64,000 nucleotides of DNA from Escherichia phage a20: the sequence record OQ067374.1; one strand, 5' to 3'. How positions within the stretch are numbered: position 1 is the stretch's first letter; each line of letters starts with the position of its first letter. The notes beneath the pieces are model-generated. The model was not told the origin of the DNA. It saw only the letters and a list, made by a program, of their open reading frames with translations, and searched no databases. A program made the translations under genes and the position numbers. Positions 20,869 through 51,115 of this stretch are shown in pieces.

Positions 20869-20934
20869 ATTATTTTCCTCGGTTATTTTATTATCCAACG
20901 AGAGAATTATACTCATCTCTCAAGAGTTTGTATA

Positions 20935-21174
20935 CTATTTTTTAAGCATGAAAAGTAAGTAATTTGTATCACGTGGAGTAATATCAACACCCATATCAAA
21001 GATGCCTTTATAGATTGGGTATTTGTTTTCGGTTGTATCGAAGCTGAAACTATTTCCATCACAACTAACAGTAATAGCATCTGTTAAAATGTCATACTCA
21101 ATCCTAACAATTGAATCCCCAATTTTAACGTCGAGGTGTTTTTTGAATTTGATAAAATCTAATTCTTGGGCCAT
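20935..21174 (-). CDS. hypothetical protein
   Basis: 79 aa ORF. Confidence 0.45.
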   Translation of the reverse strand: MAQELDFIKFKKHLDVKIGDSIVRIEYDILTDAITVSCDGNSFSFDTTENKYPIYKGIFDMGVDITPRDTNYLLFMLKK

Positions 21175-21237
21175 GATATTTTCCTCATTTTAAGACGATA
21201 GGAAGATAATAACATGACTTCCTATCGTTGTACATTA

Positions 21238-21438
21238 TTAACCGAACTTTTTAGCGCCTTTCCAGCCTTCGTACATAACTGCACAAGTCAGTAGTACAGC
21301 GTGCTGGCATTCTTTGTATTTGTAAATCCAGAACCAGCGTAAGAAGTCTTCATCCTCAACGCCGTTGAGTTTCATATTGGCAAAGAATTCGGCACGTTCT
21401 TCACGAAGTTTTTGAGATAACATAGATTCAGGATTCAT
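21238..21438 (-). CDS. hypothetical protein
   Basis: 66 aa ORF. Confidence 0.45.
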   Translation of the reverse strand: MNPESMLSQKLREERAEFFANMKLNGVEDEDFLRWFWIYKYKECQHAVLLTCAVMYEGWKGAKKFG

Positions 21439-21569
21439 TTTATATTCCAGACCCCATTTTCATCGATGAACTTAATCCAGTCATTTACAGACCATTTAGT
21501 TGTATCACCCTTTGGATTAACATTTAAAGTGTAGAACCCTTGCTTAAAAAGCCAGCGTTTGATATTCAT
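21435..21569 (-). CDS. hypothetical small protein
   Basis: Track ORF 21435..21662 shortened to the internal ATG at 21569 (GAGGAAATT upstream) to avoid overlap. Confidence 0.35.
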   Translation of the reverse strand: MNIKRWLFKQGFYTLNVNPKGDTTKWSVNDWIKFIDENGVWNIK

Positions 21570-21576
21570 AATTTCC

Positions 21577-21870
21577 TCAACTGTAACGATAACATTCGTT
21601 AGCTTTACGTTTGGCTTCAGTATGAGAAGTATTATAATCATAATCTTCTTTACTGTAAACATCTTTTTTCAACTTACGAACTTCTTTGCGGAGTTGTCGA
21701 TTCATTTCATTCTTGACTTCAGAATCAACGCCTTTCATACGTTTCCATTTATCTGAGCGGAAAATGTTTTCAACCATGTCTTTGTGGCTAACACCGTCAG
21801 GAGCTTTACGCTTACCAAAATAGTCGTAATCGCGAACTTTCAAATCTTTACGACGATATGTTTTACCCAT
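21577..21870 (-). CDS. hypothetical basic protein
   Basis: Track ORF 21577..21897; start set at the internal ATG at 21870 with GAGG upstream. Confidence 0.45.
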   Translation of the reverse strand: MGKTYRRKDLKVRDYDYFGKRKAPDGVSHKDMVENIFRSDKWKRMKGVDSEVKNEMNRQLRKEVRKLKKDVYSKEDYDYNTSHTEAKRKANECYRYS

Positions 21871-21877
21871 AAGTACC

Positions 21878-22126
21878 TCAGAGGTTGATTGATACAATGC
21901 GTTTGATAAAATTCACTTCACTTACTGAAAGGTCTTTAAGGCCAATTGCTTCTAAACGCTGAGTAAGCGTCAACATCGGGATATAATCCCATTGAGTTTT
22001 ATTTGCTTGATAAGTACGAACGCCATTAGCAATTTCAACATGCAAATCGGAAATGGTAACGAATACCGGTCGCTCGTCATTAACTTTAAGGGTTAGAACA
22101 ACTTTCTTTGAATCTAAACTAATCAT
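21878..22126 (-). CDS. hypothetical protein
   Basis: 82 aa ORF. Confidence 0.45.
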   Translation of the reverse strand: MISLDSKKVVLTLKVNDERPVFVTISDLHVEIANGVRTYQANKTQWDYIPMLTLTQRLEAIGLKDLSVSEVNFIKRIVSINL

Positions 22127-22425
22127 GGCTTAATTTCCTTCGCAATTGAACAGAAGATACCACGGTCACAAAGCATTTCGCCAATTTCTGGATATTTGAT
22201 TGAACGGTACCAAACATCCAGGCTTGAAACTCTGGTTATCTGTACTGCATTACCGTTGACGGAATAGTACTGGTCAACCTTAATTTCTTTATCTTCAATT
22301 GTCATTTTATTTTCCTCTATAGTAGATGGTTTAATCTTAACACGTCTATTGAGGATGTAAACTGTTTTATGAAAATATTTTCGATTTGAGAGGGGCACAA
22401 GGAGATAGTGAAGTGAAGATTCCAA
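22123..22425 (-). CDS. hypothetical protein
   Basis: 100 aa ORF. Confidence 0.45.
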   Translation of the reverse strand: MESSLHYLLVPLSNRKYFHKTVYILNRRVKIKPSTIEENKMTIEDKEIKVDQYYSVNGNAVQITRVSSLDVWYRSIKYPEIGEMLCDRGIFCSIAKEIKP

Positions 22426-22470
22426 TGGATTATATTAGAAATGAGATAAAGAAGACCAGGCGGCACCTGG

Positions 22471-22779
22471 TCAATCTTCTATGATATCAGAGTCATATCC
22501 TAATGAAATCAAGGACTTTTTAAACTCTGCAATATTCTTTTGTTTCTTATCATTTAAAAATATGACAGGATAACGAATATTAAGTGAAGTGAATCCTGCA
22601 CGTTTAGCAAGAGATACGATTAAAGGACGGTCATATTCAATCTTACCATTATTAGTGAGGACTTTATAAAATGTATAAGGAGCATTGAGCTCCTTTAAAA
22701 GTTTTGTAACAGTATAACATCCTGGACAACGTCCTACTTCTTCAGGGATGCCATAAATTTCAATCTTGTTGTGTTCCAC
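22471..22779 (-). CDS. nrdH: glutaredoxin-like protein
   Basis: 102 aa; CPGC active-site motif; adjacent to nrdG/nrdD. Confidence 0.75.
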   Translation of the reverse strand: MEHNKIEIYGIPEEVGRCPGCYTVTKLLKELNAPYTFYKVLTNNGKIEYDRPLIVSLAKRAGFTSLNIRYPVIFLNDKKQKNIAEFKKSLISLGYDSDIIED

Positions 22780-22781
22780 AA

Positions 22782-25859: not shown

Positions 25860-26197
25860 GATAAACCCTTACCTTAAATAGATAAGGGTATTTATAATTT
25901 AGTAAACGTTATAAAAGTTACGATGAGAACGTTTAGCTTTGCGAAGCTGACGTTTAGTAGGACGAACTGTAAATGGTTGTCCGGAGAAAAAATTCGGATC
26001 GGTTTTAATAAGCAAATACCAATCATGCTTGCCATTTTTTAATAAACGGTACAATAATTTAACTTGCATAATAATCTCTTCCCATTTCCATATTAATTAA
26101 TTCATTTATTGAAGGTTCATCATAACACGTTTCTTCGTCGTTGTAAACTGTTTCGACGTCTGGCTCGACTGTCTCCCATCGAGCCGAATACCACGGT

Positions 26198-27199: not shown

Positions 27200-27504
27200 T
27201 ATAATGTTCTCTCAAATTTGTGGAAGCATTTACGGCATTTCAATTTCAAGTTATCAGTGGTCCAGTTAACCAGTTGGACTTGGATAGTTCCACATTCTGG
27301 GCATGGATGTTTTGCTGCCGATTTGGCAGCATTTTCACGTCGTTCAACCATTTTCATGATTTCGTTCCATGCCGGAGGAACGAACTCTTCTTCACCGTGG
27401 ATTTTATCTCGCTGAACAAATTCAATCTTTGAACTATCATCAATAAACTTAACCAAGTCATGATTAGTGCTCATATCAATATCCTCTAAAAGACGTAGTT
27501 TCAT
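27199..27504 (-). CDS. hypothetical Zn-ribbon protein
   Basis: 101 aa; CPECG...CRKC pair. Confidence 0.5.
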   Translation of the reverse strand: MKLRLLEDIDMSTNHDLVKFIDDSSKIEFVQRDKIHGEEEFVPPAWNEIMKMVERRENAAKSAAKHPCPECGTIQVQLVNWTTDNLKLKCRKCFHKFERTL

Positions 27505-28454
27505 TATAAAACCTCAATGGCATTTCGTAAACCATCCGCTTTCGCATTCAGAGCTTTTAACGATTTAGTTTGTTCTGCAATCTGGGCTTCGACTTCTTTC
27601 AGACGAGATTTGAGATATTCGCGTTCTTCTCTTAAGTTATCAACTTTTTCTGCTTTAGGCTCTTTAATAGGCTTAGGTTTATACGTATTAGGGTTCTTCA
27701 GTTTAATTTGAATTCGAGAACTGAATAACATTGAACCGTTATCTTCGGTTTCACTGTGTATTTCTACCACGTCCATGATTCTTAACATCATGCGAAGTTT
27801 ATAAGACAGCGAACGAACGGTTTTATTGTGCTTCTTAATTTCTTCAGCTTTCATGGTGCCGAGATTACGTGAGTAGTAATAAGGAACCTGAATATCAATT
27901 GATAATGATGCGGTACCATTACCGGTTGGTTTGAACACTGCAGTAACCCAATCTTTAGCATGAACTGTATTTGTACGATCATCGCCGCCTGTGAATAATT
28001 TACGAGAATGTTTAAAAAGCATATTCACTTGGTTATTGAATTCACAAGCAAATTTATCAGCAAATTTAGTTTCAGGAATGGTAGTTAACCAATCAGCCAA
28101 ATGAGTCTTTTTAACATCATTAACAATAGTGAATTCAACCAAATCGGTTTTAGATGTCACAGATTTAATAAAGCTCGGCTTCATAAAGTTTTTAATGTTA
28201 TCGCGAGCTACAGTAGAAGATAATAAACGAGAACGTTTGAACCATTGAAGCAACGTCCCTAACGAATGAGAATACGCATTTTGAGTATCTTTACAGATAT
28301 GATTTTCTTGGCCTATGTATGTACCAAAATCGCGAAGAATACCACTTACTACATCTCGGTGTGGAACATCAAATCCTAGTGCACCAGAAGCACGTTGGGC
28401 ATGAACGTTAGCGATAAGACCTGCAAAGTATTCAATGTAATGTGAACGTGTCAT
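27504..28454 (-). CDS. hypothetical protein with C-terminal coiled coil
   Basis: 316 aa; promoter cassette directly upstream. Confidence 0.55.
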   Translation of the reverse strand: MTRSHYIEYFAGLIANVHAQRASGALGFDVPHRDVVSGILRDFGTYIGQENHICKDTQNAYSHSLGTLLQWFKRSRLLSSTVARDNIKNFMKPSFIKSVTSKTDLVEFTIVNDVKKTHLADWLTTIPETKFADKFACEFNNQVNMLFKHSRKLFTGGDDRTNTVHAKDWVTAVFKPTGNGTASLSIDIQVPYYYSRNLGTMKAEEIKKHNKTVRSLSYKLRMMLRIMDVVEIHSETEDNGSMLFSSRIQIKLKNPNTYKPKPIKEPKAEKVDNLREEREYLKSRLKEVEAQIAEQTKSLKALNAKADGLRNAIEVL

Positions 28455-28482
28455 AATATTTTCCTCTCGTTAAGATAGATTC

Positions 28483-28512
28483 ATTATACTCCAACCATCC
28501 TTGGTTGTAAAC
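28483..28512 (-). promoter_or_regulatory. early-promoter-like cassette with spacer hairpin (PeSL-like)
   Basis: Minus strand: GTTTAC (plus 28507-28512), 18-bp spacer containing hairpin CAACCA-TCCT-TGGTTG, TATAAT (plus 28483-28488); SD and ATG of the 27504..28454 gene follow. Confidence 0.5.
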
Positions 28513-28516
28513 TATT

Positions 28517-29476
28517 TTATGATTTTAACGCATTCATTGCGTTAAAAAGTTTAGAATACTGCAACTGGAGATTCGTTACAACACTTTGAGCATCACGAAG
28601 CTTAGCTTGTGCTTTGTCAAGTTCAACAGACAGTTGGTCCATAGTGGCCTTGATTTGATTGTAACGGTAATCTTCGGCCGGAAGAAGGTCATTAGAAACA
28701 TTTAGTTTTACTGCAGACAGTTTGCACACATTTGGCAAACCTTTAAACATTGATTTACCCGAAGTAGAATAAGCACTTAGGACTTCGGCCTGTTCAATTG
28801 GGGTCCCAGTAAGCGATGCTTCAAACAATGCATTTTCCTTTTTAAGATTTTGATAATATTCGGAGTCTTTGTGCCACCATGGCGCAGGAACCTTTTTACC
28901 AATAGATACACGAGCCTGGATAGCGATATGGCCCTTATTCTTGATAGGGTCGATAATATTAAGCTCACGAGAATAAATTGCTTTAATCTGGTGGATATTA
29001 TCACCTAAAACTTCCAACGCTTGGTGGAATACACGAGCAACGTTATCATTCTTAGGTTTATACGTAAGAGTGAACTCGTTCTCACTGATAACCATGATTT
29101 CTAACTTATCGTAAGTATATTTCAAATGTTTCATGTTAATTGCTTGAGGACGAATACGAGAAGCAATGGCCATCAGATTGTTAAGGTTATTCCGGAACTG
29201 CTTAGCGAAATATTGTCCTTCACCACCAATACAAAAATTACGAAGTTTCTGTTTGGCTAATAAACGGCTGAACTCACCATTTTTAATGAACTCTTTAACG
29301 GGTGTGTTAGTAACGCATTCAAATTGAGTAAACTTACGAGAAGTAATCCCATAATATGAACAGATTTCCTCAATCTCTTCAGGAGTCTTTACAGGCATAC
29401 GGATAGGATTAGGTCCTGGAGTATATGCGTTCGAGGTAAATTCTTTGATAAGTTCTCTACGTGTAATAAAAGCCAT
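28517..29476 (-). CDS. hypothetical protein with C-terminal coiled coil
   Basis: 319 aa; same promoter cassette upstream. Confidence 0.55.
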   Translation of the reverse strand: MAFITRRELIKEFTSNAYTPGPNPIRMPVKTPEEIEEICSYYGITSRKFTQFECVTNTPVKEFIKNGEFSRLLAKQKLRNFCIGGEGQYFAKQFRNNLNNLMAIASRIRPQAINMKHLKYTYDKLEIMVISENEFTLTYKPKNDNVARVFHQALEVLGDNIHQIKAIYSRELNIIDPIKNKGHIAIQARVSIGKKVPAPWWHKDSEYYQNLKKENALFEASLTGTPIEQAEVLSAYSTSGKSMFKGLPNVCKLSAVKLNVSNDLLPAEDYRYNQIKATMDQLSVELDKAQAKLRDAQSVVTNLQLQYSKLFNAMNALKS

Positions 29477-29502
29477 TTTATATTCCTCATGTTGAAAAAT
29501 TT

Positions 29503-29532
29503 ATTATACTCCAACCATCCTTGGTTGTACAT
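29503..29532 (-). promoter_or_regulatory. early-promoter-like cassette with spacer hairpin (PeSL-like)
   Basis: Near-identical copy of the 28483-28512 element (TATAAT at plus 29503-29508, same CAACCA-TCCT-TGGTTG hairpin, -35 variant ATGTAC). Confidence 0.45.
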
Positions 29533-30527
29533 CATTCCTTAAGAAGTTTTACTACTTGAATAAGATTAGCTCGTTCTGTTTTATTTTTACCGTTTAAGCC
29601 TGCTAATCGTGAGATTTCATCGTCAGTCTGTTGAATAGTTACATTAAGTTCGTTAATCAAAGCTTCAAAGTATTTGATTTGCTCAGCATGTTTTGATTCA
29701 AATTTCTGAACCGGAATAACGTCTTGATTCAGTTCATCAATAAGGTCTTTAAGAGCATCTTCTTGGTTGATATCATATTCAACTTCTTTTATTTCTTCAA
29801 CGAGCTCGTCTTTATATCTAACGTCTTTTAGTCCTGGAGCTGGTCCTAAAATCTCTTCTTTAAGAGTACAAACATATCCAATACGATATCCAGTGCCGTC
29901 TCGCTTGATATCAACTTCGTCGATAAATCCACAATGTTTAAGACCAGAGCCGATTAGGTTAAAATATCCTTGACGTCGTCCTTCAAACGTTACACGAACT
30001 ACTAAGACGGTTTTGCCACTGACCTTTTGAAGCTCACATTTATAAAAGTCTGTTGAACCTGAATAACATGGATGAGTTTTAAAGTTCATCTGACGATCTA
30101 GACCCATTTGTAAGCGTGCTGATACGGCCATAAAACGTGTTTGGTTCTCGTTAAGATGAGCAACAATCCATTTCAAAGGCATTTTACACTGTTCACGACC
30201 GAACAAATCAGTACGTCCTAGATTACGCAGGATGTTGTTAGAGTTAATCATCGACAGAACGTTAAGTTTATTCAGCGCGCTGAAGATTCCATCAGCCATT
30301 GATTTTCCGTAACCTTTACACGCTTTAATAAGCGCTCGCGGCAGATTAGTATAGATTTCAGACGGCATATGAAAATCAAATTTACTAGTCAGTAATTGAT
30401 GAACTTGGATAGCAATTTGCTCATAATTAAGTGCTCTGCGATCATTATGGTCTTTAAACCACACTTTAATCTGTGAAGCACATAAACCGTTAATTTCATG
30501 TTTTACCGCATCAGATGTAATGCTCAT
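29532..30527 (-). CDS. hypothetical protein with C-terminal coiled coil
   Basis: 331 aa. Confidence 0.55.
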   Translation of the reverse strand: MSITSDAVKHEINGLCASQIKVWFKDHNDRRALNYEQIAIQVHQLLTSKFDFHMPSEIYTNLPRALIKACKGYGKSMADGIFSALNKLNVLSMINSNNILRNLGRTDLFGREQCKMPLKWIVAHLNENQTRFMAVSARLQMGLDRQMNFKTHPCYSGSTDFYKCELQKVSGKTVLVVRVTFEGRRQGYFNLIGSGLKHCGFIDEVDIKRDGTGYRIGYVCTLKEEILGPAPGLKDVRYKDELVEEIKEVEYDINQEDALKDLIDELNQDVIPVQKFESKHAEQIKYFEALINELNVTIQQTDDEISRLAGLNGKNKTERANLIQVVKLLKE

Positions 30528-30589
30528 AACTATTTCCTCAGATTGAATTGGAACTCAAAACCATTATAACCCGTCCTTGGGTAAAGCGT

Positions 30590-31117: not shown

Positions 31118-31144
31118 GTTTTACCTCCAGTAGTTGATAGGTCT

Positions 31145-31173: not shown

Positions 31174-31175
31174 AA

Positions 31176-41299: not shown

Positions 41300-41305
41300 A
41301 TAACC

Positions 41306-41614: not shown

Positions 41615-42150
41615 TGCATTCCAATCACAAAAAATTGAGGACGAGCATTACCGCCGATGCAATATTTGCTTTTGCAGCAGTGCTGTACTGTTTTAATGTG
41701 GACATTGTAAATCTTATCCATATCAGGAGCTTTAATAGGCTCGTCAATTATATACAGAATACGAGAAAGCGTTAATCCACGAAATTTAGAACCTTCATTG
41801 CCAATAAAACTACGAACAGAATCAGTAAATAAACGGAATCGAATATCATCGCTAGAATAACGAGAAAATTCTTTTTCAATGTTGCCAGCAGAAATTTTAG
41901 CGTAAGCTGAAGTATTAGAAAGAACAATAACTGTTCCACCATCATACAGCCAATTAACAGCAAAATTAGTTACTGCGGTCGATTTACCTGATTGTCTGCC
42001 GCCGTCTAAACGAAGTGTACAGTACTGCTTGAGTACGTCTTCAAATGGTGGGGCATAACCGTTCTTACAAATTTCTTCTACTCTAGCATCAGAATGGTGT
42101 GTAAAAGCATTCATCAGGGATAGATAAGGACCAGTTAAAAATGTTCTCAT
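41611..42150 (-). CDS. P-loop NTPase
   Basis: 179 aa; Walker A GGRQSGKST and Walker B-like ILYIIDEP. Confidence 0.5.
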   Translation of the reverse strand: MRTFLTGPYLSLMNAFTHHSDARVEEICKNGYAPPFEDVLKQYCTLRLDGGRQSGKSTAVTNFAVNWLYDGGTVIVLSNTSAYAKISAGNIEKEFSRYSSDDIRFRLFTDSVRSFIGNEGSKFRGLTLSRILYIIDEPIKAPDMDKIYNVHIKTVQHCCKSKYCIGGNARPQFFVIGMQ

Positions 42151-42322
42151 TTAGTTTCTCTTTTAGGTTGGGCCATTCCGTGGCACATGTTAGGTCCTTC
42201 GACTCGCTATGTAAACCCATTACCGCATTGCGCTCGACCTTATTACAGGTTGGAAAAGGTACATCACTCAGAGGACTCGACGTTCATGAGGAGAGGTTGC
42301 GTTTCCCTTTATTAGGCAAGAA

Positions 42323-42652
42323 TTATACTCTAGGCTTTTGAGCTTGTTTGGTATTGGATTCCCATGCGGCTTTGGTAATTTTGTTAGCGGCATAACCAAA
42401 GGCATTAGATAGAACACCTTTAGAGTTGAATACATCCAATCCAATAAGTACACCGGCTGTGTTAAATTTAGGAGCAAAGTACGCATTAGTTTTAGAAAGA
42501 GCTTTTTTCAATTCAGGGTCTTGAACCAAGCCATCAAAAACGCCTTTACTATTTACTTTGTATGTTACTTTGGGATTTTTACCTTCTTCGATAGCAGCTT
42601 TCTGTTCCGCAGATAATGTAACTTCAGTGATAAACTCCTGATATGTTTTCAT
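42323..42652 (-). CDS. internal-protein-like head protein with capsid-targeting N-terminus
   Basis: 109 aa; N-terminus MKTYQEFITE matches the T4 internal protein capsid targeting sequence. Confidence 0.6.
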   Translation of the reverse strand: MKTYQEFITEVTLSAEQKAAIEEGKNPKVTYKVNSKGVFDGLVQDPELKKALSKTNAYFAPKFNTAGVLIGLDVFNSKGVLSNAFGYAANKITKAAWESNTKQAQKPRV

Positions 42653-42677
42653 TTTGTTCCTATTGTTTTAATTTATG

Positions 42678-42992
42678 TTATTCTTTAGGGAAGTTTTTAG
42701 AGTATGCATCATAAAGTTTATTACCAATACGACGGAAGACTTTAGCTGCAAAACGGTTTTCAGGGTTTTTAATCATGATTTGCATCATGTAAGTTCCTGC
42801 ATCCGAAAGAGCTTCTTCATAGTACCCATTAATTTCTTTAAGAGTCCTACGTTTACCACCAGGACCGTCAACAGTAATTTTCCATTTACCTGTAGAAGTG
42901 CGGCTCGGTGGCTCAACTTGTTCAATCCAAATATAACCACCTTCAACGCGTTGGTTGGCGGATTCTGCAATAAATTCTTTATACGTTTTCAT
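42678..42992 (-). CDS. internal-protein-like head protein with capsid-targeting N-terminus
   Basis: 104 aa; N-terminus MKTYKEFIAE. Confidence 0.6.
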   Translation of the reverse strand: MKTYKEFIAESANQRVEGGYIWIEQVEPPSRTSTGKWKITVDGPGGKRRTLKEINGYYEEALSDAGTYMMQIMIKNPENRFAAKVFRRIGNKLYDAYSKNFPKE

Positions 42993-43055
42993 TTTTGTTT
43001 CCTTGTTTGTTTTGATAGAGTAATTATACCATATTAATACTTAAGCGTAAACAAT

Positions 43056-43316
43056 TTAAGCTTTACCGCCAGAAATAATTCCGAAGTTGTTAAAATCATA
43101 TCCAATATCGTCAACATCTACTTTAGGACTTGCTACAACATAAGCAATTTCACTACGTTTTGCATAGGTGTTGATTTCTTTACCATCGCCACCTAAGAAA
43201 GAATACCCATTACGTTTTAATGAGCCAAAGTCTTCCGCATCACCAATGAAAGCTTTAACTTTAAATTTAGGACCTTTGGCATCTGCTTCAATGATAAATT
43301 CTTGATACATTTTCAT
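43056..43316 (-). CDS. internal-protein-like head protein with capsid-targeting N-terminus
   Basis: 86 aa; N-terminus MKMYQEFIIE. Confidence 0.55.
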   Translation of the reverse strand: MKMYQEFIIEADAKGPKFKVKAFIGDAEDFGSLKRNGYSFLGGDGKEINTYAKRSEIAYVVASPKVDVDDIGYDFNNFGIISGGKA

Positions 43317-43322
43317 TTTTCC

Positions 43323-43736
43323 TTAGTAAATTGATTTACCATAGTATTTGTACCAAGTCGGACGTTGAGCAATTTTTTCATCTAAGCGTGCTTGACTTAT
43401 CGCAATGGACGCTTCGGACGGGACATAATTATTACGAAATTCGGCAGGGATGTCGGAAATATCCTGGACTGTCGTGTCCTTGATTTTGAAACCACGTTTC
43501 AAACATTCAGCGATTAGCTCGATTTGACGTAAACGTAAAAATTCGAGTTTGTCGTAAAAGAATGTTACGTGACCTGTGCCTAAGATAAATGTTGGAGAGA
43601 TTTTAAAATCCTTTACACGTTTACCGTTTTGAACATGTTTACGGACTGCACCAAATACGCGTGGTAATTCACGATACTCAGCCATAAGATGTTGGTCGGA
43701 CAGTTCAGAAACAAGTGTTAAATTGATACGAGTCAT
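43323..43736 (-). CDS. denV: endonuclease V (pyrimidine dimer DNA glycosylase)
   Basis: Track ORF 43323..43748; start set at MTRINLTL (T4 DenV N-terminus); GGAGGAAATT precedes the ATG. Confidence 0.93.
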
Positions 43737-43738
43737 AA

Positions 43739-43793
43739 TTTCCTCCAAGTAGTTGATGAATGTATAGTATCAAAGTCCTTGGAGGAAGTAAAC
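43739..43793 (-). promoter_or_regulatory. promoter cassette with SD-sequestering inverted repeat upstream of denV
   Basis: Minus strand GTTTAC (plus 43788-43793), 18 bp, TACTAT (plus 43764-43769); 10-bp inverted repeat TTCCTCCAAG / CTTGGAGGAA includes the denV SD. Confidence 0.5.
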
Positions 43794-43794
43794 A

Positions 43795-44076
43795 CTATTT
43801 TTCTGAAGCGCCTGAAATATATTTTTCAAGACGTTGTTTCATTAGCGAGCCGTTCTTAGCGATTTCTTCCGGTTTATCGCACATACGCAACAATGCTTCA
43901 AGCTTAACGATATCGCTGGTGCGCTCAAATTTGCGAGTGTCTATCTTACTAGCAAGTTCAGAAATACGTGCTAATAGACTTTCAGCTTCAACCAAAGCTG
44001 CACCTAGCTTAGTTGCAAATGTGTCAGTAGCTTCATTAAGAATAGATTCTGATAAAAATTCACTATATGTTTTCAT
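43795..44076 (-). CDS. internal-protein-like head protein with capsid-targeting N-terminus
   Basis: Track ORF 43795..44091; start set at [10 protein letters not shown] (44076). Confidence 0.55.
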
Positions 44077-45756: not shown

Positions 45757-46259
45757 TACCAGCCTTCCATAGGGAATTCCAGATAAACTTGGGCATTGAC
45801 ACGAATTTCATTGGTAATCTTTTTAACTCGGTCTGTATTACGAGATACACGTCCGAACCAACGCCATCCGTTACTAATTGCACGAGAACCAGTGTGCCAT
45901 GTTTGCCAATCAAACTGAAGAAGAGTACGATCTGGAGCTTCCCATTCAGTGTTTAAACAACAAACAGACCATGTAGGAGCAACGAAATCGGTGAATCTAA
46001 TATCATGGTCTGCAACTAGTTTAGCAATAGCTCCGATATCATGAATCATAATACCTGGGGCTAATAAAGATTTTCTGCTATGGCTAGCCGTTTTCTCGGT
46101 GGTCTCATAAGAAGACGACCAGTACCATTTACGTCCAGTTGCAACATATCGTAATGAATCAACTAAAGACGTAGGTGGATTTACCTTATCTCGGAACTCT
46201 TCGAACATTGAGTCAATATCATTATTTTGGTTTCGCATGTTAACTCCTTTATTATCCAA
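45756..46259 (-). CDS. hypothetical protein
   Basis: 167 aa, Trp-rich; no motif recognised. Confidence 0.5.
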   Translation of the reverse strand: MDNKGVNMRNQNNDIDSMFEEFRDKVNPPTSLVDSLRYVATGRKWYWSSSYETTEKTASHSRKSLLAPGIMIHDIGAIAKLVADHDIRFTDFVAPTWSVCCLNTEWEAPDRTLLQFDWQTWHTGSRAISNGWRWFGRVSRNTDRVKKITNEIRVNAQVYLEFPMEGW

Positions 46260-46287
46260 AAGGAGGACCGGAGTCCTCCGTATTATT

Positions 46288-46881
46288 TTATTTCAAAGAG
46301 TTAATATATTCTTGTACATCAGCAGAAGTGGTTTCGACGCCGGCTGGAGTGCCATTGAACGTTTCAACACGAGTCAGAGTGTCTTCGATATCAACCTTAG
46401 TCAGTGCAGCTATTTCAATTACATCATCGGCCGTAGAGATACCAAGGGCATTGGCTGCTCGAGTTTCACGAATGTATTCGAGTTTGATTGCCAGGTTCTG
46501 ACGAGCATCGTCAAGTTCAACCACCTTACGAGCAATTTCAATTCGCATAGCGGCATACCCGTCAGCCTTTGTATTAAGTTGTTCGGCAGTTCGACGATAC
46601 AGAAGACCAAGCTTAGCATGCATGGTAACATCTTGTCCTTCAGCCAGGAGCTTACGAATTTCACGTTCCTTAGAAGCGGCTTGCTTGTTCTTTTCATTAA
46701 CAAGTTCGCGAATACGTTTTTCTTCATTAATAGATTTAACAGAAGCCGTTTTTAGTTCTTTGATTTGGGTAATCAACTTATCTGCAGCTGCGTTATACTG
46801 TTCTTCGACAGTCAGATTTTTAGCCATAGCAGTACCCAGTTTAGTGCGGATGAATTCGACAAGTTTCTTCAGTGTGTTCAT
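46288..46881 (-). CDS. coiled-coil protein (possibly PspA/IM30-like)
   Basis: Track ORF 46288..46896 starts at a non-ATG codon; set to ATG at 46881 (MNTLKKLV) with AAGG upstream; long amphipathic helices. Confidence 0.5.
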
Positions 46882-46922
46882 ATTATTACCTTTCAATTGG
46901 TGGTTTATTATCCAACGAGAGC

Positions 46923-46952
46923 ATTATACTCTGCTCTCAAGAGTTTGTAAAT
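46923..46952 (-). promoter_or_regulatory. promoter-like cassette with -10 in a hairpin loop
   Basis: Minus strand ATTTAC, 18 bp, TATAAT (plus 46923-46928) inside hairpin GAGAGC/GCTCTC; a variant copy at 20906-20935 has stem GAGAGA/TCTCTC (compensatory change). Confidence 0.4.
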
Positions 46953-47179
46953 TATTTTTTAATCAAATTGACATAAAACTTGGCGTCTTCGGGGTGCATG
47001 CCTTCGCAGTATTCTTCAACCATGAACTTCTTAACAGCTTCATAAGGACCACTCAGATTAAGCTCAGTTGTCCAGAACTTGGAATCTTGGACTGAATCGA
47101 TACGAACTTCAGGGTGTCGGTTGCGAATAACTTCTTCGGTGTATTCATAATCAACGACATCAATACTAACTTTAGCCAT
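46952..47179 (-). CDS. hypothetical acidic protein
   Basis: 75 aa; AGAGGAAAACAAA precedes the ATG. Confidence 0.5.
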   Translation of the reverse strand: MAKVSIDVVDYEYTEEVIRNRHPEVRIDSVQDSKFWTTELNLSGPYEAVKKFMVEEYCEGMHPEDAKFYVNLIKK

Positions 47180-47207
47180 TTTGTTTTCCTCTTGATTTGA
47201 TAGGACT

Positions 47208-47237
47208 ACTATAACATAAACTTACTTAGATGTAAAT
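47208..47237 (-). promoter_or_regulatory. early-promoter-like element
   Basis: Minus strand ATTTAC (plus 47232-47237), 18 bp, TATAGT (plus 47208-47213). Confidence 0.4.
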
Positions 47238-47390
47238 TATTTCAACGTCACCTTTAGCTGCTTTATAACCTTCAGCCCAAGATACAACAGAGTTTTTATC
47301 TGAGGATTCAAATTCAGGCATTGGACTTTCACCAATATTCACACAGTATGTTTCTTCATTTTCATCGAACCAAATAATTAAAGTAGTCAT
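47226..47390 (-). CDS. hypothetical small protein (not on ORF track)
   Basis: 54 codons from ATG at 47390 with GGAGTAAACAAA upstream; hand translation MTTLIIWFDENEE... Confidence 0.3.
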   Translation of the reverse strand: MTTLIIWFDENEETYCVNIGESPMPEFESSDKNSVVSWAEGYKAAKGDVEIIYI

Positions 47391-47420
47391 TTTGTTTACT
47401 CCTCTGTAGTTGATAAGTCT

Positions 47421-47450
47421 ATAGTATCACCATCCTTGGTGCTTGTACAT
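47421..47450 (-). promoter_or_regulatory. early-promoter-like cassette with spacer hairpin (PeSL-like)
   Basis: TACTAT (plus 47421-47426) and ATGTAC flank hairpin CACCA-TCCT-TGGTG, a variant of the 28483 and 29503 hairpins. Confidence 0.4.
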
Positions 47451-47458
47451 CATTATTT

Positions 47459-47764
47459 TTAATTTTTCCAACTTAACAACTTGTAGTGTCCTTCATTCAT
47501 ACGTGGTTTATCCCAAGAAATACTAATATATGATTCACTGTCAATAGAAATCGCCGGGTTTTTCTCTACCGTAAGACCTTCACTTTCCAGCCATTCAATA
47601 GTATTTGCGCATAAATCGGAAGAACACCTCATCGGGAACCGGCAAGATTTTTCACCTTTAGCTGCAGTGTTATACATCTTTTCTAAAATACGCTTTTGCA
47701 CGTTTTTAAAAATAGTTTCAGCAGATTCTTCAGATTTTTTATTCAGTTCAGTGTAAAGACTCAT
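47459..47764 (-). CDS. hypothetical protein
   Basis: 101 aa; GAGGAGAATATT precedes the ATG. Confidence 0.5.
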   Translation of the reverse strand: MSLYTELNKKSEESAETIFKNVQKRILEKMYNTAAKGEKSCRFPMRCSSDLCANTIEWLESEGLTVEKNPAISIDSESYISISWDKPRMNEGHYKLLSWKN

Positions 47765-47792
47765 AATATTCTCCTCTGTGGTTGATAAGTCT

Positions 47793-47821
47793 ATAGTATC
47801 ATGTCCTTAGAAGAAGTAAAC
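47793..47821 (-). promoter_or_regulatory. early-promoter-like element
   Basis: Minus strand GTTTAC (plus 47816-47821), 17 bp, TACTAT (plus 47793-47798). Confidence 0.45.
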
Positions 47822-47852
47822 ATCTTTATGAAATATTTTTATGCCCTAGATG

Positions 47853-47881
47853 CCAAAAAGCCCCAACCATAAGGAAGGGGC
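47853..47881 (-). terminator. rho-independent terminator (same hairpin family as 36621-36644)
   Basis: GCCCCAACCATAAGGAAGGGGC preceded on plus by GCCAAAAA, giving a U-run after the hairpin on the minus strand; immediately downstream of the 47888..48352 gene. Confidence 0.55.
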
Positions 47882-47887
47882 ATTCTA

Positions 47888-48352
47888 TTATTTAATTTGT
47901 TTAGCAGACCAGATACGGTCTTTAATAAGTTTTTGGATATCTTCAACATACTCAAGGCTATGAGCGTGAGGATTATCTTTGAAGCTATGTGCTCGTGCCA
48001 GTTTCTGTCCTTCTGTTTTGATTACTAAAAGCTCTTTAAGAATTGCTTCATACTTAGAAATAATTCCTTTGGCGATATTTTTTTCTTGAGCTGCTTTAGG
48101 GTCCGCTTTTGGCGCAGGTGCTTTACCTGTAGCTTTCTGGAACAATTCACCTGATGCAGCTAGGCTTTTAAAAACTCGGCTAACAGTATTAGCATTAGTA
48201 AAACCTTCGGCTTTAAAATCTCTAATAAAACGGAAACGTTCTTCATCAGAGGCGTCTTTGTAAGAATATTTACCTGCTTGAATTGCTGCAATCGCAGCGG
48301 CTTTTACATCTGAACTAGATTGTTCAGTCAAAAATTCAGCGTATGATTTCAT
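47888..48352 (-). CDS. internal-protein-like head protein with capsid-targeting N-terminus
   Basis: 154 aa; N-terminus MKSYAEFLTE. Confidence 0.55.
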   Translation of the reverse strand: MKSYAEFLTEQSSSDVKAAAIAAIQAGKYSYKDASDEERFRFIRDFKAEGFTNANTVSRVFKSLAASGELFQKATGKAPAPKADPKAAQEKNIAKGIISKYEAILKELLVIKTEGQKLARAHSFKDNPHAHSLEYVEDIQKLIKDRIWSAKQIK

Positions 48353-48394
48353 GTTGCTTTTCCTAAGTTAATTAACTTATCTATTTATTATTAT

Positions 48395-48425
48395 GCCAAA
48401 AAGCCCCAACCTTTCGGAAGGGGCT
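48395..48425 (-). terminator. rho-independent terminator (third copy of the hairpin family)
   Basis: AGCCCC-AACCTTTCGGAA-GGGGCT (plus 48402-48425) with GCCAAAAA on its plus-strand 5' side; separates the RNA-gene region from the internal-protein gene. Confidence 0.55.
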
Positions 48426-48477
48426 AAGCCTTGCGGCAACCTTGTCGGGGTTTCCACCTGCTAAGGCAAGTGTTTGT

Positions 48478-48569
48478 ACGAAACGCCGGGATTCGAACCC
48501 GGTTATTAAGCAGTTGACGCTACTCAATATTTTTAAAAGGCCATATCTCGACCATATCCGAACGTTCCG
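48478..48569 (-). ncRNA. tRNA-like element / possible stable RNA or tRNA remnant
   Basis: Minus strand has a canonical T-arm CCGGG-TTCGAAT-CCCGG and a 3' acceptor strand CGTTTCG that can pair with CGGAACG about 85 nt upstream, but the D and anticodon arms do not fold canonically. Confidence 0.3.
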
Positions 48570-48737
48570 TCAAAAACGCTACTCGGCTTACGGCAAAGAT
48601 ATTTCCTCGAATCGATAATTCTGTGCGCCGTTTCTGCTGTGATGTAAGGGGATATTAACAAATCGTAAAGATTTATTAAGACCAGTCCTTACTCAGGGAA
48701 CATCAGTCCGACGACTTACCGGTAGCGACCCGGCTTC

Positions 48738-49082
48738 TTATTTTGGCATATCATCAATTTGCTCTCGACGCCGACGCCATAGATTAATCGCTTCATTAAC
48801 ACATTCGGCGTTTGGTATATGACGGCAATAATATAATGATTCGCGTTTCTGGAATCGATGTTGCAATGGGATTTCGTTTAAAAGGTCTTTACGGTCAAAG
48901 TATTCAAAACTAGTTAACCCGTAACGATTTTTAATGAACTTCCAATGTCCAAATTCATTTTGAACATAAATGTAATCGGCATGCTGATACAGCGAATTAA
49001 TCAATCGATGAGAAATAACTGTATCATATTCGTTAAAATAAAACGTTAAATCATGAACTACCAGATAAATATTGCCTTTCAT
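48738..49082 (-). CDS. hypothetical protein
   Basis: Track ORF 48738..49130 would overlap the tRNA; start set at the internal ATG at 49082 (MKGNIYLVVHD) with GAGGAAAAT upstream. Confidence 0.5.
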   Translation of the reverse strand: MKGNIYLVVHDLTFYFNEYDTVISHRLINSLYQHADYIYVQNEFGHWKFIKNRYGLTSFEYFDRKDLLNEIPLQHRFQKRESLYYCRHIPNAECVNEAINLWRRRREQIDDMPK

Positions 49083-49100
49083 ATTTTCCTCACTTAAAGT

Positions 49101-49177
49101 TGGTCGAGACAGAAGGATTCTAACCTTCAACCTACGGATTAGAAGTCCGTTGCTCCATACAATTGAGCTATGCCTCG
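49101..49177 (-). tRNA. tRNA-Arg (anticodon TCT)
   Basis: Hand fold of 77 nt: acceptor CGAGGCA/TGTCTCG, D-stem GCTC/GAGC, anticodon stem ACGGA/TCCGT with loop CTTCTAA, T-stem GAAGG/CCTTC, discriminator A, encoded CCA; T-loop is TTAGAAT (non-canonical). Confidence 0.65.
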
Positions 49178-49183
49178 AATATA

Positions 49184-49257
49184 TGACCCAGACCAGATTC
49201 GAACTGGTAACCTTTCCCTTATGAGGGGACTGCTGCTAACCATTGAGCTACAGGGCC
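49184..49257 (-). tRNA. tRNA with CAT anticodon (Met, or Ile if lysidine-modified)
   Basis: Hand fold of 74 nt: acceptor GGCCCTG/CTGGGTC (one mismatch), anticodon loop CTCATAA, T-arm ACCAG-TTCGAAT-CTGGT, no encoded CCA; D-arm imperfect. Confidence 0.5.
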
Positions 49258-49336
49258 TAAATAACTTTCTATTATGAAAGGCACTTTAGAGCACCTTTGG
49301 TAATAGAGGGTACGAATTAATAATAACACATAATTC

Positions 49337-49852
49337 TTAAAGCAAATCAATCATTTTAACAGTCGGCAAAACAATTTCTTCTTCAATATAAGCGAATTCA
49401 ACACGTTCAACTACACGCAAGAAATCATAGTCGTAGTATTCAGAAGCATAGCCAAGAATATCAATAAGTCCTTGAGATATCTCATCGCCTTTCACAAAGA
49501 ACAGGTCGAATACACGCGATTCGTCTTCTTCAGATTTATTACCAAGGTCGACTTCAATATCAAAGACCTTTTTAATGAATTCTGGATAAAGCTGGTCTGA
49601 GAACAGCCCTTCAACCAAGTATTCATAGATTAAAAGCGAGCAATCACTGAATGGTGTATTACCACAGTAACGTTCAGCTTTAGTGCTGGAATGACGACTC
49701 TTAAATTTCTTCAAGAGATATTTAAACTGTTGGAGCTCATGCTCTTCCACACCAAATAATGTTTTGGTTTTATAGTTGTCGCCGTCATTTTCCCAAGTAG
49801 TGACATCAATTACGTAACCCTTAGGAATTGTACTGCCTAAACAAATATTCAT
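49337..49852 (-). CDS. hypothetical acidic protein
   Basis: 171 aa ORF. Confidence 0.55.
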   Translation of the reverse strand: MNICLGSTIPKGYVIDVTTWENDGDNYKTKTLFGVEEHELQQFKYLLKKFKSRHSSTKAERYCGNTPFSDCSLLIYEYLVEGLFSDQLYPEFIKKVFDIEVDLGNKSEEDESRVFDLFFVKGDEISQGLIDILGYASEYYDYDFLRVVERVEFAYIEEEIVLPTVKMIDLL

Positions 49853-49856
49853 TTAC

Positions 49857-50147
49857 TCACCGTACCATATTAATGTAATTATATTCAATGCAACGTAATT
49901 TCAAAGGATTCTTGAAAATATCATATTCAAGAGGGCCTTTTTCTGTTTCAATAAAGAAATCAAAGTTAACTGTGTTAAATTTATCATCTTCACAGAGTAA
50001 TTTAACCTGTGAAGATGAACGGTCGATATAAACCTTTTCAACCTCAAAGTTAGTCAGAATACCGTAGTCATCGACTAGTGCTTTAGCTGCACGTTGATCG
50101 CTTTCATATCCATTCTCAATGGACGATACTTTAGCATAAAGAATCAT
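49857..50147 (-). CDS. hypothetical protein
   Basis: 96 aa ORF. Confidence 0.5.
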   Translation of the reverse strand: MILYAKVSSIENGYESDQRAAKALVDDYGILTNFEVEKVYIDRSSSQVKLLCEDDKFNTVNFDFFIETEKGPLEYDIFKNPLKLRCIEYNYINMVR

Positions 50148-50524
50148 GAATGTTCCACCACTTCAAAAGTATGTGCACTGACAATCTGGTACCAGTCAAA
50201 ATTTTCTTCAGCATTTTTGTAGATTTCACGAAGAGCTTCAACAGTTTTTCCTGTAGCAACAAGATCGTCAATACCGCCAAGAGGATAACAGTCGTAACCA
50301 GCAAACAGAAGGAAATTAATAGTTTCTGTAGGTTCTGGATGCAGAATACCGTTATCATCTACCACTTCAAAGAAAGTGTAAGAAGGAGTACAAGTTTTAA
50401 TCCAAGCCCATGCTTGAGCCGCTGAATCAAATGGTCTGCGTATCAAACGACAATCATGGTCTTTAGAAGGATTTGCTTCAAAATCCGCATATACATGATA
50501 TTTCATTTTACCCACCTTTTGCAA
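50144..50524 (-). CDS. hypothetical protein
   Basis: 126 aa ORF. Confidence 0.5.
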   Translation of the reverse strand: MQKVGKMKYHVYADFEANPSKDHDCRLIRRPFDSAAQAWAWIKTCTPSYTFFEVVDDNGILHPEPTETINFLLFAGYDCYPLGGIDDLVATGKTVEALREIYKNAEENFDWYQIVSAHTFEVVEHS

Positions 50525-50714
50525 TTTTATCCATAACGATAGCGATTAAGCCGATTAGAAATGCTACTACCAATGAGATAGAATTTTCTGTTGTTGTCAG
50601 TAGTCCACAAATGAATCCTACAAACATCGAAAAACTAAAAGCCATTGAAGCAATTACTACAGCAACATTACGAATCAGTTCAGCGCGTTTCATTTTATTT
50701 CTCCATTTACTCAT
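50508..50714 (-). CDS. small membrane protein
   Basis: 68 aa; two hydrophobic helices. Confidence 0.5.
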   Translation of the reverse strand: MSKWRNKMKRAELIRNVAVVIASMAFSFSMFVGFICGLLTTTENSISLVVAFLIGLIAIVMDKIAKGG

Positions 50715-50723
50715 TTGTTTTGA

Positions 50724-50760
50724 TAGGACTACTATAACATAGTCCTATCAGCATGTAAAC
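50724..50760 (-). promoter_or_regulatory. early-promoter-like cassette with hairpin
   Basis: Minus strand GTTTAC (plus 50755-50760), 18 bp, TATAGT (plus 50731-50736); inverted repeat TAGGACTA/TAGTCCTA identical to the 36000 element. Confidence 0.45.
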
Positions 50761-50763
50761 TAC

Positions 50764-51051
50764 TTACAGAAGAGTTTTTGCAATAATTTTAAGCTGAGCT
50801 ACAGAAATATGCTTAGCTTTAAACAGTGCAGTCTCTTCAGCCGGAGAGATAACAATAGTAGCGCCATCTTTCTTAGCAGACCATCCATCCCCTAAGTAAA
50901 CAGTACCTTTTACTTCTTCGCCGTCAACCAGGCCGATCATTGGTTTACCCTCACGTCCTTTATTTGCTTTAATAACTTCGGAAGTAAGGGTTGCTTCGGT
51001 TAGAGTAGAAACGTTAGCATCAGGTGATATAAATTCTTTATAGGTTTTCAT
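50764..51051 (-). CDS. internal-protein-like head protein with capsid-targeting N-terminus
   Basis: 95 aa; N-terminus MKTYKEFISPD; AAGGAAATAAA precedes the ATG. Confidence 0.55.
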   Translation of the reverse strand: MKTYKEFISPDANVSTLTEATLTSEVIKANKGREGKPMIGLVDGEEVKGTVYLGDGWSAKKDGATIVISPAEETALFKAKHISVAQLKIIAKTLL

Positions 51052-51085
51052 TTTATTTCCTTGAGGTCGTTTATTTGATAGGATG

Positions 51086-51115
51086 ATAGTAACACGCCAT
51101 CATCCTTATGTAAAC
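51086..51115 (-). promoter_or_regulatory. early-promoter-like cassette with hairpin
   Basis: Minus strand GTTTAC (plus 51110-51115), 18 bp, TACTAT (plus 51086-51091); inverted repeat AGGATGAT/ATCATCCT flanks the -10. Confidence 0.45.

Follow-up and report, generated by a model that had tools for sequence, protein, structure and literature searches.

We analyzed a stretch of 64,000 nucleotides (nt) from Escherichia phage a20 (sequence record OQ067374.1), referred to here as the window, and a family of early promoter cassettes with embedded inverted repeats that lies within it; all coordinates are those of the whole stretch. A 16-kb segment of the window (28000 to 44000) is 96 to 99% identical to many Mosigvirus genomes (e.g., BEU50, NRG-P0074, APCEc01, and mar005P1), and on sequence identity the phage is a Mosigvirus, i.e., an RB69-like T-even phage. 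The segment from approximately 20 to 52 kb corresponds to the minus-strand early region 55.x-nrdG/D-49-nrdC.x-tk-vs-regB-denV-e-...-57B of annotated relatives (mar005P1, NRG-P0074, and RB69) and, by this correspondence, represents the classic hyperplastic early region of the T-even group.

A strand-specific family of promoter cassettes

A search of the window for GTTTAC-N17/18-TA(T/C)(A/T)(A/G)T matched exactly at 13 sites, every one of them on the minus strand (21631 to 51115); in 100 shuffles the pattern averaged 0.31 occurrences and never exceeded 2. The initial annotation of this DNA had claimed at least 14 sites with GTTTAC; 13 of these are exact, and a total of 14 requires −35 boxes with one or two mismatches, such as those of its four other sites (GTATAC at 20906, ATTTAC at 46923, and ATGTAC at 29503 and 47421). 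A profile hidden Markov model built from 17 sites (cutoff, E ≤ 1.3e-3) recovered 22 cassettes, all within 20861 to 51128 and all on the minus strand, which is the coding strand of the early cluster. Their promoter boxes comprise the 13 exact matches and 9 near matches, and the consensus anchored on the −10 is aTTTAC...TGTTATaAT. Most of the cassettes (19/22) lie in the gap immediately 5′ of an open reading frame (ORF), with a Shine-Dalgarno (SD) sequence and an ATG 26 to 41 nt past the −10; the other three (21631, 26119, and 27503) lie within coding sequence or over a start codon. Aligned on the −10, the family displays A-rich sequence upstream (in many cassettes as runs 5′ of the −35, e.g., aaaaaata or cataaaaca), (G)TTTAC, TGT-TATaAT, CCTATCAA, an unstructured leader, a GGAG or GAGGA SD, and the ATG. 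AGGA also recurs in the spacer (approximately −24 to −20), and its complement, TCCT, recurs just 5′ of a conserved ATCAA at the presumed start (−5 to +5); polymerase recognition, RNA pairing, or both may underlie these recurrent motifs.

This anatomy is that of an early promoter, as the initial annotation had proposed. Each cassette, approximately 70 nt in length, consists of an A-rich UP region, GTTTAC, a 17- to 18-bp spacer, TGn-TAnnnT, an unstructured leader, a GGAG-type SD, and an ATG, and the family would supply the promoters of the nrdC-tk-regB-denV-e early region, transcribed by the host sigma-70 polymerase. When aligned to RB69 by BLAST, 20 of the 22 cassettes fall on predicted early-promoter positions (Nolan et al. 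2006, Additional file 3), of which 58 have been predicted in that phage (Nolan et al. 2006, PMC1524935). The T4 regB promoter, described as a typical early promoter (PMC3014915), is orthologous to the site at 40230. Our literature searches turned up no modern start-site map for T4 or RB69. An Rfam scan of the whole window found no known RNA family at the cassettes; its sole hits were two adjacent tRNA genes (49104 to 49257, minus strand). Collectively, these data show that the cassette family is real and strand specific.

Selection on pairing within the cassettes

A stem lies in or around the promoter in 17/22 cassettes, and these stems are of three types. In type A (eight cassettes) the stem straddles the −10, in type B (six cassettes) a predicted helix joins the spacer to the SD of the gene that follows, and in type C (three cassettes) the spacer holds a hairpin with an AGGA loop. 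The hairpins initially quoted for 28483, 29503, 47421, 20906, and 46923 are every one present as described when the minus strand is read.

The initial annotation had argued from a single compensatory pair that these structures are selected, and the comparative evidence proved stronger than that pair. We assembled a family-wide sample from the window, T4 (AF158101, 40 to 80 kb), mar005P1, and 16 regB neighborhoods from IMG/VR, reduced it to 56 clusters at 75% identity, and computed the duplex energy of each spacer with its own downstream segment and with that of every other cluster. The mean energy was −10.7 kcal/mol for self pairs versus −7.1 kcal/mol for non-self pairs, and 0/20000 permutations reached the observed mean (z = −11.5). 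Duplexes of −12 kcal/mol or lower made up 36% of self pairs versus 8% of non-self pairs. Thus, the palindromes are not a mere reflection of the shared motifs AGGA and TCCT.

The helix between the regB spacer and SD occurs in five lineages with differing distal arms. These are TTCTCCTCTAGTTG/CAACTAGAGGAGAA in Mosigvirus, TTTTCCTCTTGACTG/CAGTTAAGAGGAGAA (with two G·U pairs) in the T4 group, TTTCTCCTCTTTATG/CATAAAGAGGAGAAA in L011, TCTCCTGTAAG/CTTACAGGAGA in L014 and L017, and, in L015 and L016, a weaker match together with a local GGGCCAT/ATGGCCC stem. The helix is missing from a sixth, distant lineage (L018). The denV arms are likewise lineage dependent (TCTCCTGTAG/CTACAGGAGA in T4, 14 bp in L012, and 9 bp in L013). 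Swapping arms between lineages gave much weaker duplexes; the observed assignment was the best for regB (1/120) and for the 36000 locus (1/24), and for denV 2/120 assignments equaled or beat it.

Pairing was also counted in alignments, where it exceeded that of shuffled or slid controls throughout and supports the claim of the initial annotation, which had proposed a covariation analysis. A MAFFT alignment of the whole regB promoter-leader (A1) placed the arms out of register and was not counted. It was replaced by a register-anchored alignment of 14 type B sequences (A2), in which 80% of cells were paired, versus 63.5% when shuffled (0/500) and 44 to 53% when slid, and both partners had changed in 12/15 pairs. 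For the 36000 cassette, MAFFT aligned nine orthologs without gaps (A3), and this alignment escapes the objection of register anchoring; 98.1% of its cells were paired versus 26 to 65% when slid, eight cells were G·U, and two were unpaired. At each of the four stem positions where T4 and Mosigvirus differ, both partners had changed and still paired. For type C (A4), 89.6% of cells were paired versus 70.4% when shuffled, and around a constant AGGA loop the stems are CAACCA/TGGTTG, CACCA/TGGTG, CGCCA/TGGTG, ACACCA/TGGTGT, CCACA/TGTGG, and AGCCA/TGGCT. Inside stems, G·U combinations outnumbered A·C combinations (38 versus 21; p = 0.036), and sense-strand duplexes were more stable than antisense ones (Wilcoxon p = 0.02). 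This bias favors folding of the sense-strand nucleic acid, of which RNA is the simplest case. Collectively, these comparisons of sequences show that the embedded inverted repeats are maintained by selection, via compensatory and G·U-type changes between paralogs and orthologs.

Predicted pairing of the spacer with the Shine-Dalgarno sequence

When the cassettes were folded through to the ATG, the pyrimidine-rich start of the spacer paired with the SD of the downstream gene, strongly at 40230 (regB), 43764 (denV), and the duplicated sites 36450 and 36577 and more weakly at 47793 and 22334. The four strong cases have predicted energies of −15.7 to −21.6 kcal/mol (z down to −4.7), and the leader of the own transcript folds at approximately 0 kcal/mol. 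According to these predictions, several of the hairpins noted initially are the proximal end of longer helices that extend to the SD. The left arm of a cassette always lies in the spacer, 5′ of the −10, and is therefore missing from the cassette's own transcript, so the helix can form only in RNA read through from upstream.

At the regB promoter (40199 to 40258; this and all cassettes below are on the minus strand; RB69 Pe:61376), the predicted helix is 14 bp long and joins TTCTCCTCTAGTTG in the spacer to CAACTAGAGGAGAA, which contains the SD (z = −4.3; −21.6 kcal/mol). At the denV promoter (43734 to 43793; RB69 Pe:64934), TTCCTCCAAG in the spacer pairs with CTTGGAGGAA at the SD (z = −4.7). 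The cassette at 36450 (36420 to 36478) is the downstream copy of a duplication and pairs the spacer sequence TTCTCCTC with the SD sequence GAGGAGAA (−15.7 kcal/mol), with a predicted probability that the SD is unpaired of 0.72 in the own transcript versus 0.00 in read-through RNA; its upstream counterpart at 36577 (36547 to 36605) is followed by a 16-codon truncated ORF. In the two weak cases, ATCCTC pairs with the SD GAGGA at 22334 (22303 to 22362; −10 TAAGAT; RB69 Pe:43945), where the same probability is 0.72 versus 0.17, and TTCTTCT pairs with AGAGGAGAA at 47793 (47762 to 47821), where it is 0.35 versus 0.05.

Overall, the mean predicted probability that the SD is unpaired was 0.70 in the own transcript and dropped to 0.40 in read-through RNA. 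The SD was almost fully paired in 27% of clusters when they carried their own upstream part, versus 10.7% with the upstream part of another cassette (Fisher p = 0.002) and 5.4% with random upstream sequence (p = 5e-6). We rejected the notion that all cassettes mask the SD, since the fully masked fraction alone separated own from foreign upstream parts.

Type A and type C cassettes and cassettes without structure

Seven of the hairpins that straddle the −10 have minimum free energy z scores of −2.65 to −6.0 (21198, 21631, 31145, 36000, 46923, 50731, and 51086), and the three spacer hairpins, at −0.4 to −1.0, are individually nonsignificant.

The strongest type A stem belongs to the 36000 cassette (35969 to 36029; z = −6.0), where the 12-bp stem TTGGTAGGACTA/TAGTCCTACCAA encloses an 8-nt loop with TATAG of the −10. 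At 50731 (50691 to 50760; RB69 Pe:76459) the stem is 10 bp (GATAGGACTA/TAGTCCTATC; z = −5.5), and its orthologs have GGTAGG/CCTACC in L022 and TAGGGT/ACCCTA in T4. The 21198 cassette (21172 to 21235; ATGTAC-18-TATTAT; RB69 Pe:42816) has a 9- to 11-bp stem, GATAGGAAG/CTTCCTATC, that flanks the −10 (z = −5.3). Its arms are preserved in orthologs although the loop is inverted (L019) or shortened (JN02, in which a 3-nt loop deletion shortens the promoter spacer and leaves the stem intact). In the L019 sequence (IMG/VR 3300029310_000132), the 12-nt loop with the −10 is reverse complemented between the intact arms (ataataacacgt versus acatgttattat), an inversion that would destroy the promoter and retain the hairpin. 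At 51086 (51049 to 51115; RB69 Pe:77187), AGGATGAT/ATCATCCT surround TACTAT (z = −3.6), and the T4 ortholog has TGATGAGGTA/TACCTCATCA. At 31145 (31115 to 31173), upstream of an nrdC.9-like gene, GGTCTAT/ATAGACC surround TATTAT (z = −3.2); in the T4 ortholog, GTTCCTCTGTGGT pairs instead with ACTACGGAGGAAC, the SD included. A weak type A stem at 21631 (21567 to 21660; RB69 Pe:43242) pairs AGAAG with CTTCT plus an extension (z = −3.0). This cassette lies inside or at the end of the upstream ORF, with an ATG 61 nt past the −10, and its promoter is conserved in T4.

The type C cassettes at 28483 (28452 to 28512; z = −0.7 alone) and 29503 (29474 to 29532; −35 ATGTAC) share the hairpin CAACCA-agga-TGGTTG and precede an nrdC.3-like gene and a paralogous nrdC.5-like gene, respectively. 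The third, at 47421 (47388 to 47450), has CACCA-agga-TGGTG and a rearrangement breakpoint 24 nt upstream, at 47474.

Among the remaining cassettes, 32621 (32580 to 32649; GTGTAC-17-TATTAT) has no significant structure, and its orthologs in other lineages have type A stems of differing sequence. The cassette at 42990 to 43052 (GTTTAC-18-TATAAT; RB69 Pe:64193) likewise has no significant structure, and that at 47177 to 47237 (ATTTAC-18-TATAGT) has the conserved right-hand motif AGTCCTATCAA with no complementary left arm. The promoter-like site at 26119 (26067 to 26148; GTTTAC-18-TATGAT; E = 1.3e-3; RB69 Pe:48639) is intragenic and has no notable structure. A further promoter-like site, 27503 (27472 to 27532; GTTTAC-18-TATAAT), has no structure, is not on the RB69 list, and is degenerate in T4. 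Its −10 (27503 to 27508) overlaps the ATG of the nrdC.2 homolog (tataATGaaa), so transcripts from it would lose the start codon, and the site is doubtful as the nrdC.2 promoter.

Paralogous, chimeric, and duplicated cassettes

The compensatory pair on which the initial annotation relied lies in two paralogous type A cassettes. The first, 20906 (20866 to 20935; GTATAC-18-TATAAT; RB69 Pe:42515), precedes a gp55.2-like gene with its ATG at 20868; its stem of GAGAGA (20921 to 20916) and TCTCTC (20905 to 20900) has the −10 in the loop and is not significant alone (z = −0.8). The second, 46923 (46879 to 46952; ATTTAC-18-TATAAT; z = −2.65), pairs GAGAGC (46938 to 46933) with GCTCTC (46922 to 46917). 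Read on the minus strand, the hairpins are GAGAGA-tgagTATAAT-TCTCTC and GAGAGC-agagTATAAT-GCTCTC. The two cassettes differ at 3/43 aligned positions, two of which are the partners of the apical stem pair; by a post hoc estimate, the probability of this by chance is approximately 0.007. The pair is thus present as reported (A-T versus C-G), but it may have spread by exchange between the paralogs. At the 20906 locus the apical pair is A-T in the window, A-T with a seventh C-G pair in RB69, C-G in L019, and a broken C/T in JN02 (L025). The JN02 cassette is a chimera that resembles the 46923 cassette in its left half and the 20906 cassette in its right half. Recombination between the paralogs, with the crossover falling in the loop, may thus have transferred the double change; events of this kind have been reported for the promoter early stem-loop (PeSL) cassettes of phage RB49. 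Because of this possible exchange, the 20906/46923 pair supports selection less cleanly than the ortholog data do. A scan of viral contigs with a pattern for this subfamily gave 4 loci, insufficient for statistics, and yielded the L019 variant.

A 127-bp tandem duplication occupies 36373 to 36626 (minus strand), with copies at 36626 to 36500 and 36499 to 36373, and is single copy in all six close relatives that we compared with the window. The duplicated unit takes in the 3′ arm of a terminator, a whole early-promoter cassette, and codons 1 to 16 of the gene that follows, and the upstream copy terminates in a stop codon created by the junction. The duplication could be genuine or an assembly artifact.

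Terminators, read-through, and rearrangement breakpoints

Terminator scans of 20001 to 58000 (loop limit, 3 to 8 nt) found no terminator-like site that coincides with a cassette hairpin, and a terminator reading of the hairpins was therefore not adopted. No U tract follows any of these hairpins, their tails are A-rich, and several have loops of 8 to 20 nt. The sole terminator adjoining a cassette, read from the sequence, is a canonical intrinsic terminator at 36617 to 36644 (minus strand; AGCCCC-ttccgaaaggtt-GGGGCT-TTTTT), directly 5′ of the promoter at 36605; its 12-nt loop exceeds the limit of the scans, which explains why they did not list it. T4 early transcripts run on into downstream genes (PMC2988021), and with this precedent and no coinciding terminator, read-through across the cassettes is plausible.

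The initial annotation had proposed a comparison of cassette positions with breakpoints relative to related phages. Comparing the window with the six close relatives gave 34 breakpoint clusters in the 20- to 52-kb region, of which 9 lie within 10 nt of a cassette: 32642 (at 32621), 36501 (at the duplication), 40262 (regB), 46950 (46943 to 46957, at 46923), 47474, 47776 and 47827 (both at 47793), 50712 (at 50731), and 51083 (at 51086). This exceeds the 7.2% expected for random positions (p = 5e-4), but most breakpoints are at gene junctions regardless of cassettes. Breakpoints hit 9/19 cassette-bearing junctions versus 13/52 others (p = 0.067) and 6/16 of the others whose gap measures 30 nt or more (p = 0.40). 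The coincidence thus stood against random positions and was lost against other gene junctions, so no preference for cassettes is demonstrated. The breakpoints are compatible with cassettes acting as homology patches, and the JN02 chimera, the L019 loop inversion, and the 127-bp duplication are suggestive as individual events.

Two further rearrangements lie apart from the cassettes. A 260-amino-acid ORF (33968 to 34750, minus strand) that carries a homing endonuclease annotation in NRG-P0074 has no cassettes at its flanks and is missing from RB69, mar005P1, and JN02 (breakpoints 33988 and 34759). At 45939 to 45946, the same three phages have approximately 4 kb of additional ORFs relative to the window, with no cassette at the junction. 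In NRG-P0074, the segment from 45946 to 50712 is replaced.

Discussion

The best explanation of these data, which we hold with moderate confidence, is that the cassettes are sigma-70 early promoters in which the type B spacer acts as an anti-SD, that the type A and type C hairpins are features of read-through RNA, and that cassettes serve as homology patches. In type B (regB, denV, 36450/36577, and weakly 47793 and 22334), read-through RNA would have its SD locked in a helix of 10 to 15 bp and would be poorly translated, whereas the SD of the short promoter-proximal transcript would be free. Since RegB is inhibited by secondary structure (PMC3014915; PMC1702504), the helix would also shield the GGAG of the read-through RNA from this nuclease. 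Synthesis from type B genes would be tied to the brief activity of the early promoter: with an early internal promoter whose spacer provides the 5′ side of the helix, translation would last no longer than the minutes in which that promoter fires. Such early-limited translation would suit regB, whose product needs tight limitation and cleaves its own SD (PMC3014915). The RegB/S1 target consensus is GGAGRAYARAA (PMC3014915), and exact matches occur in the leaders of the 36000 cassette (GGAGAACAAAA, 35975 to 35985) and the 32621 cassette (GGAGAATAAAA, 32586 to 32596), so these early mRNAs are likely RegB substrates. In types A and C, the structure would be an intercistronic hairpin present only in read-through RNA, where attenuation, pausing, or protection of RNA ends is possible; without a U tract, a classical terminator role is not supported. 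As a secondary effect, the cassettes, because they resemble one another, may act as homology patches for module exchange or duplication.

A broader proposal can be made more tentatively. The spacer of certain T-even early promoters would be an anti-SD for the next gene, conserved for regB and denV in at least five lineages, and the promoter of origin would then set both translation and cleavage by RegB. Many T-even PeSL stem-loops would be shields against translation and nuclease at the RNA level instead of terminators, and the promoter would be under dual selection as DNA and as RNA. Our literature searches, which left much older T4 work uncovered, found no early-promoter-embedded anti-SD described for regB or denV.

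Several points weigh against this explanation. Every structure here is a prediction. About 5/22 cassettes have no notable structure and only about one-quarter mask the SD, so that no single function covers the family. With the own upstream part, SD accessibility averaged 0.40, not different from the 0.42 obtained with another cassette's; the masking is therefore in part common to the whole family or a generic consequence of adding sequence, and strong masking belongs to a subset rather than to the whole family. The register-anchored alignment A2 was built in helix register and A4 from sequences found by stem search, and both constructions favor pairing; the G·U excess was counted on nonindependent sequences. 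Finally, an RB49 PeSL stem-loop that was tested experimentally lowered downstream expression like a terminator.

That last result bears on the role first proposed for PeSLs, in which stem-loops terminate or attenuate incoming transcription and the cassettes are chiefly portable linkers for recombinational shuffling. The anatomy of the cassettes agrees with the published definition, the RB49 stem-loop cut lacZ expression as strongly as rrnB T1, and the excess of breakpoints near cassettes over random positions, the chimeric JN02 cassette, and the tandem duplication in the window would all fit. We nevertheless consider it unlikely here. The hairpins lack a U tract and are absent from the terminator scans, their stems are short and A/T-rich compared with the GGGG/CCCC stems of RB49, and cassette-bearing junctions are not broken significantly more often than other junctions; moreover, termination leaves unexplained why arms covary with an SD region 25 to 30 nt away.

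Translational coupling, in which the type B helix masks the SD until it is melted by a ribosome that completes the upstream gene, shares the predicted SD masking with the anti-SD explanation. In most cassettes, the upstream stop codon lies 1 to 12 nt before the −35 and hence 8 to 18 nt from the left arm, and a ribosome terminating there might partly open the helix, which also counts against strict masking. From general knowledge of ribosome footprints, however, such a ribosome would touch no more than a few base pairs at the start of a 10- to 15-bp helix, and T4 precedents of equal geometry block translation, so coupling appears improbable.

We regard as more improbable still a DNA-level element, in which the inverted repeats are sites for a dimeric protein, such as a factor that turns early promoters off, or extrude as hairpins or cruciforms and thereby influence recombination or the opening of the promoter. 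Type A repeats do center on the −10, how T4 early promoters are shut off has been described as incompletely understood, and the loop inverted between intact arms in one IMG/VR relative is a DNA-level event. Arms vary by cassette (GAGAGA, GGTCTAT, AGGATGAT, and GTAGGACTA), which speaks against one sequence-specific protein; we set the protein-operator reading aside because the arm sequences differ among cassettes and pairing, rather than sequence, is preserved. In addition, the mostly G·U-type variants of the sense strand would be C·A mismatches on the other strand of a cruciform, and type B arms extend into the SD. That no structure is selected, with the palindromes a by-product of conserved motifs (AGGA in the spacer, TCCT before the start) and recent cassette duplication, is highly improbable: AGGA at approximately −24 to −20 and CCTATCAA after the −10 do recur family-wide, the 28483 and 29503 hairpins precede tandem paralogous genes, and short hairpins are nonsignificant singly, but non-self combinations of the motifs pair far worse than self, orthologous stems differ by double pair-preserving changes, and the self/non-self, swap, and A3 results all contradict it.

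Re-identifying T-even early promoters or PeSLs in another RB69-like genome has annotation value and is not a discovery. What the analysis adds is comparative evidence that the repeats are selected and a subset of cassettes that links the promoter spacer to the ribosome-binding site (RBS) of the next gene. If the anti-SD explanation is true, the T4 principle that the promoter of origin decides translatability would extend from late to immediate-early genes such as regB, the extra conserved positions of T4 early promoters would be accounted for in part, and the terminator role given to T-even PeSL stem-loops would need to be reread. For the engineering of T4-type phages, moving or deleting an early promoter would then alter translation of the downstream gene from read-through RNA.

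Comparison with known systems

The elements themselves are already known: they are T-even early promoters, or PeSL cassettes, most of them predicted at orthologous positions in RB69. The initial annotation had noted the resemblance to PeSLs, and the published definition fits each feature. As published (Arbiol et al. 2010, PMC2839356; PMC4122927), a PeSL combines AT-rich DNA with a sigma-70-like early promoter, a stem-loop, an SD, and a start codon, with the stem-loop mostly between the −35 and −10 or over the −10, and lies between small genes of hyperplastic early regions. The T4/PST PeSLs (Comeau et al. 2014, PMC4122927) have the consensus TTTACW-N17-TAYWAT and AGNA-loop-TCNT stems, which fit types A and C here. 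Recombination between neighboring PeSLs is described as yielding mini-circles; the chimeric JN02 cassette and the 127-bp duplication would be no more than suggestive of such exchange. The cassettes differ from the published PeSLs in three respects. The published stem-loop is a terminator or attenuator, whereas no stem here has a terminator signature; about one-quarter of the cassettes here are predicted to pair the spacer with the SD, which the consulted text of the PeSL papers does not mention; and the association with breakpoints here is not above that of other gene junctions. Intrinsic terminators share an intergenic hairpin with the cassettes, but the cassette hairpins have no U tract, several have loops of 8 to 20 nt, and the true terminator at 36617 to 36644 is a separate element.

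As promoters, the cassettes share with the early promoters of T4-type phages and RB69 (PMC1524935; Hinton 2010, PMC2988021) the UP element, GTTTAC, TGn, the −10, and extra conserved positions. Descriptions of T4-type early promoters attribute this extra conservation to polymerase recognition and describe no inverted repeats or covariation.

The closest parallel to type B is found in the RBS-sequestering hairpins of T4. For T4 e, soc, 49, I-TevI, and segB and for Aeh1 mobE, two sources (PMC3014915; PMC2988022) describe long transcripts that sequester the RBS and a promoter inside the hairpin that gives a translatable short transcript. Type B cassettes resemble them in having the SD in a stable predicted helix (40230, 43764, 36450, and 36577 and, more weakly, 47793 and 22334), with a promoter inside the helix whose transcript does not include the 5′ arm. 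Among the known cases, translation is delayed by an internal promoter of the late or middle class, whereas here the internal promoter is an early sigma-70 promoter whose spacer would be the 5′ arm, and regB and denV are not among the cases named in the consulted text. Because the internal promoter is early rather than late or middle, type B would be a variant, and not a strict member, of the e/soc/49/I-TevI class.

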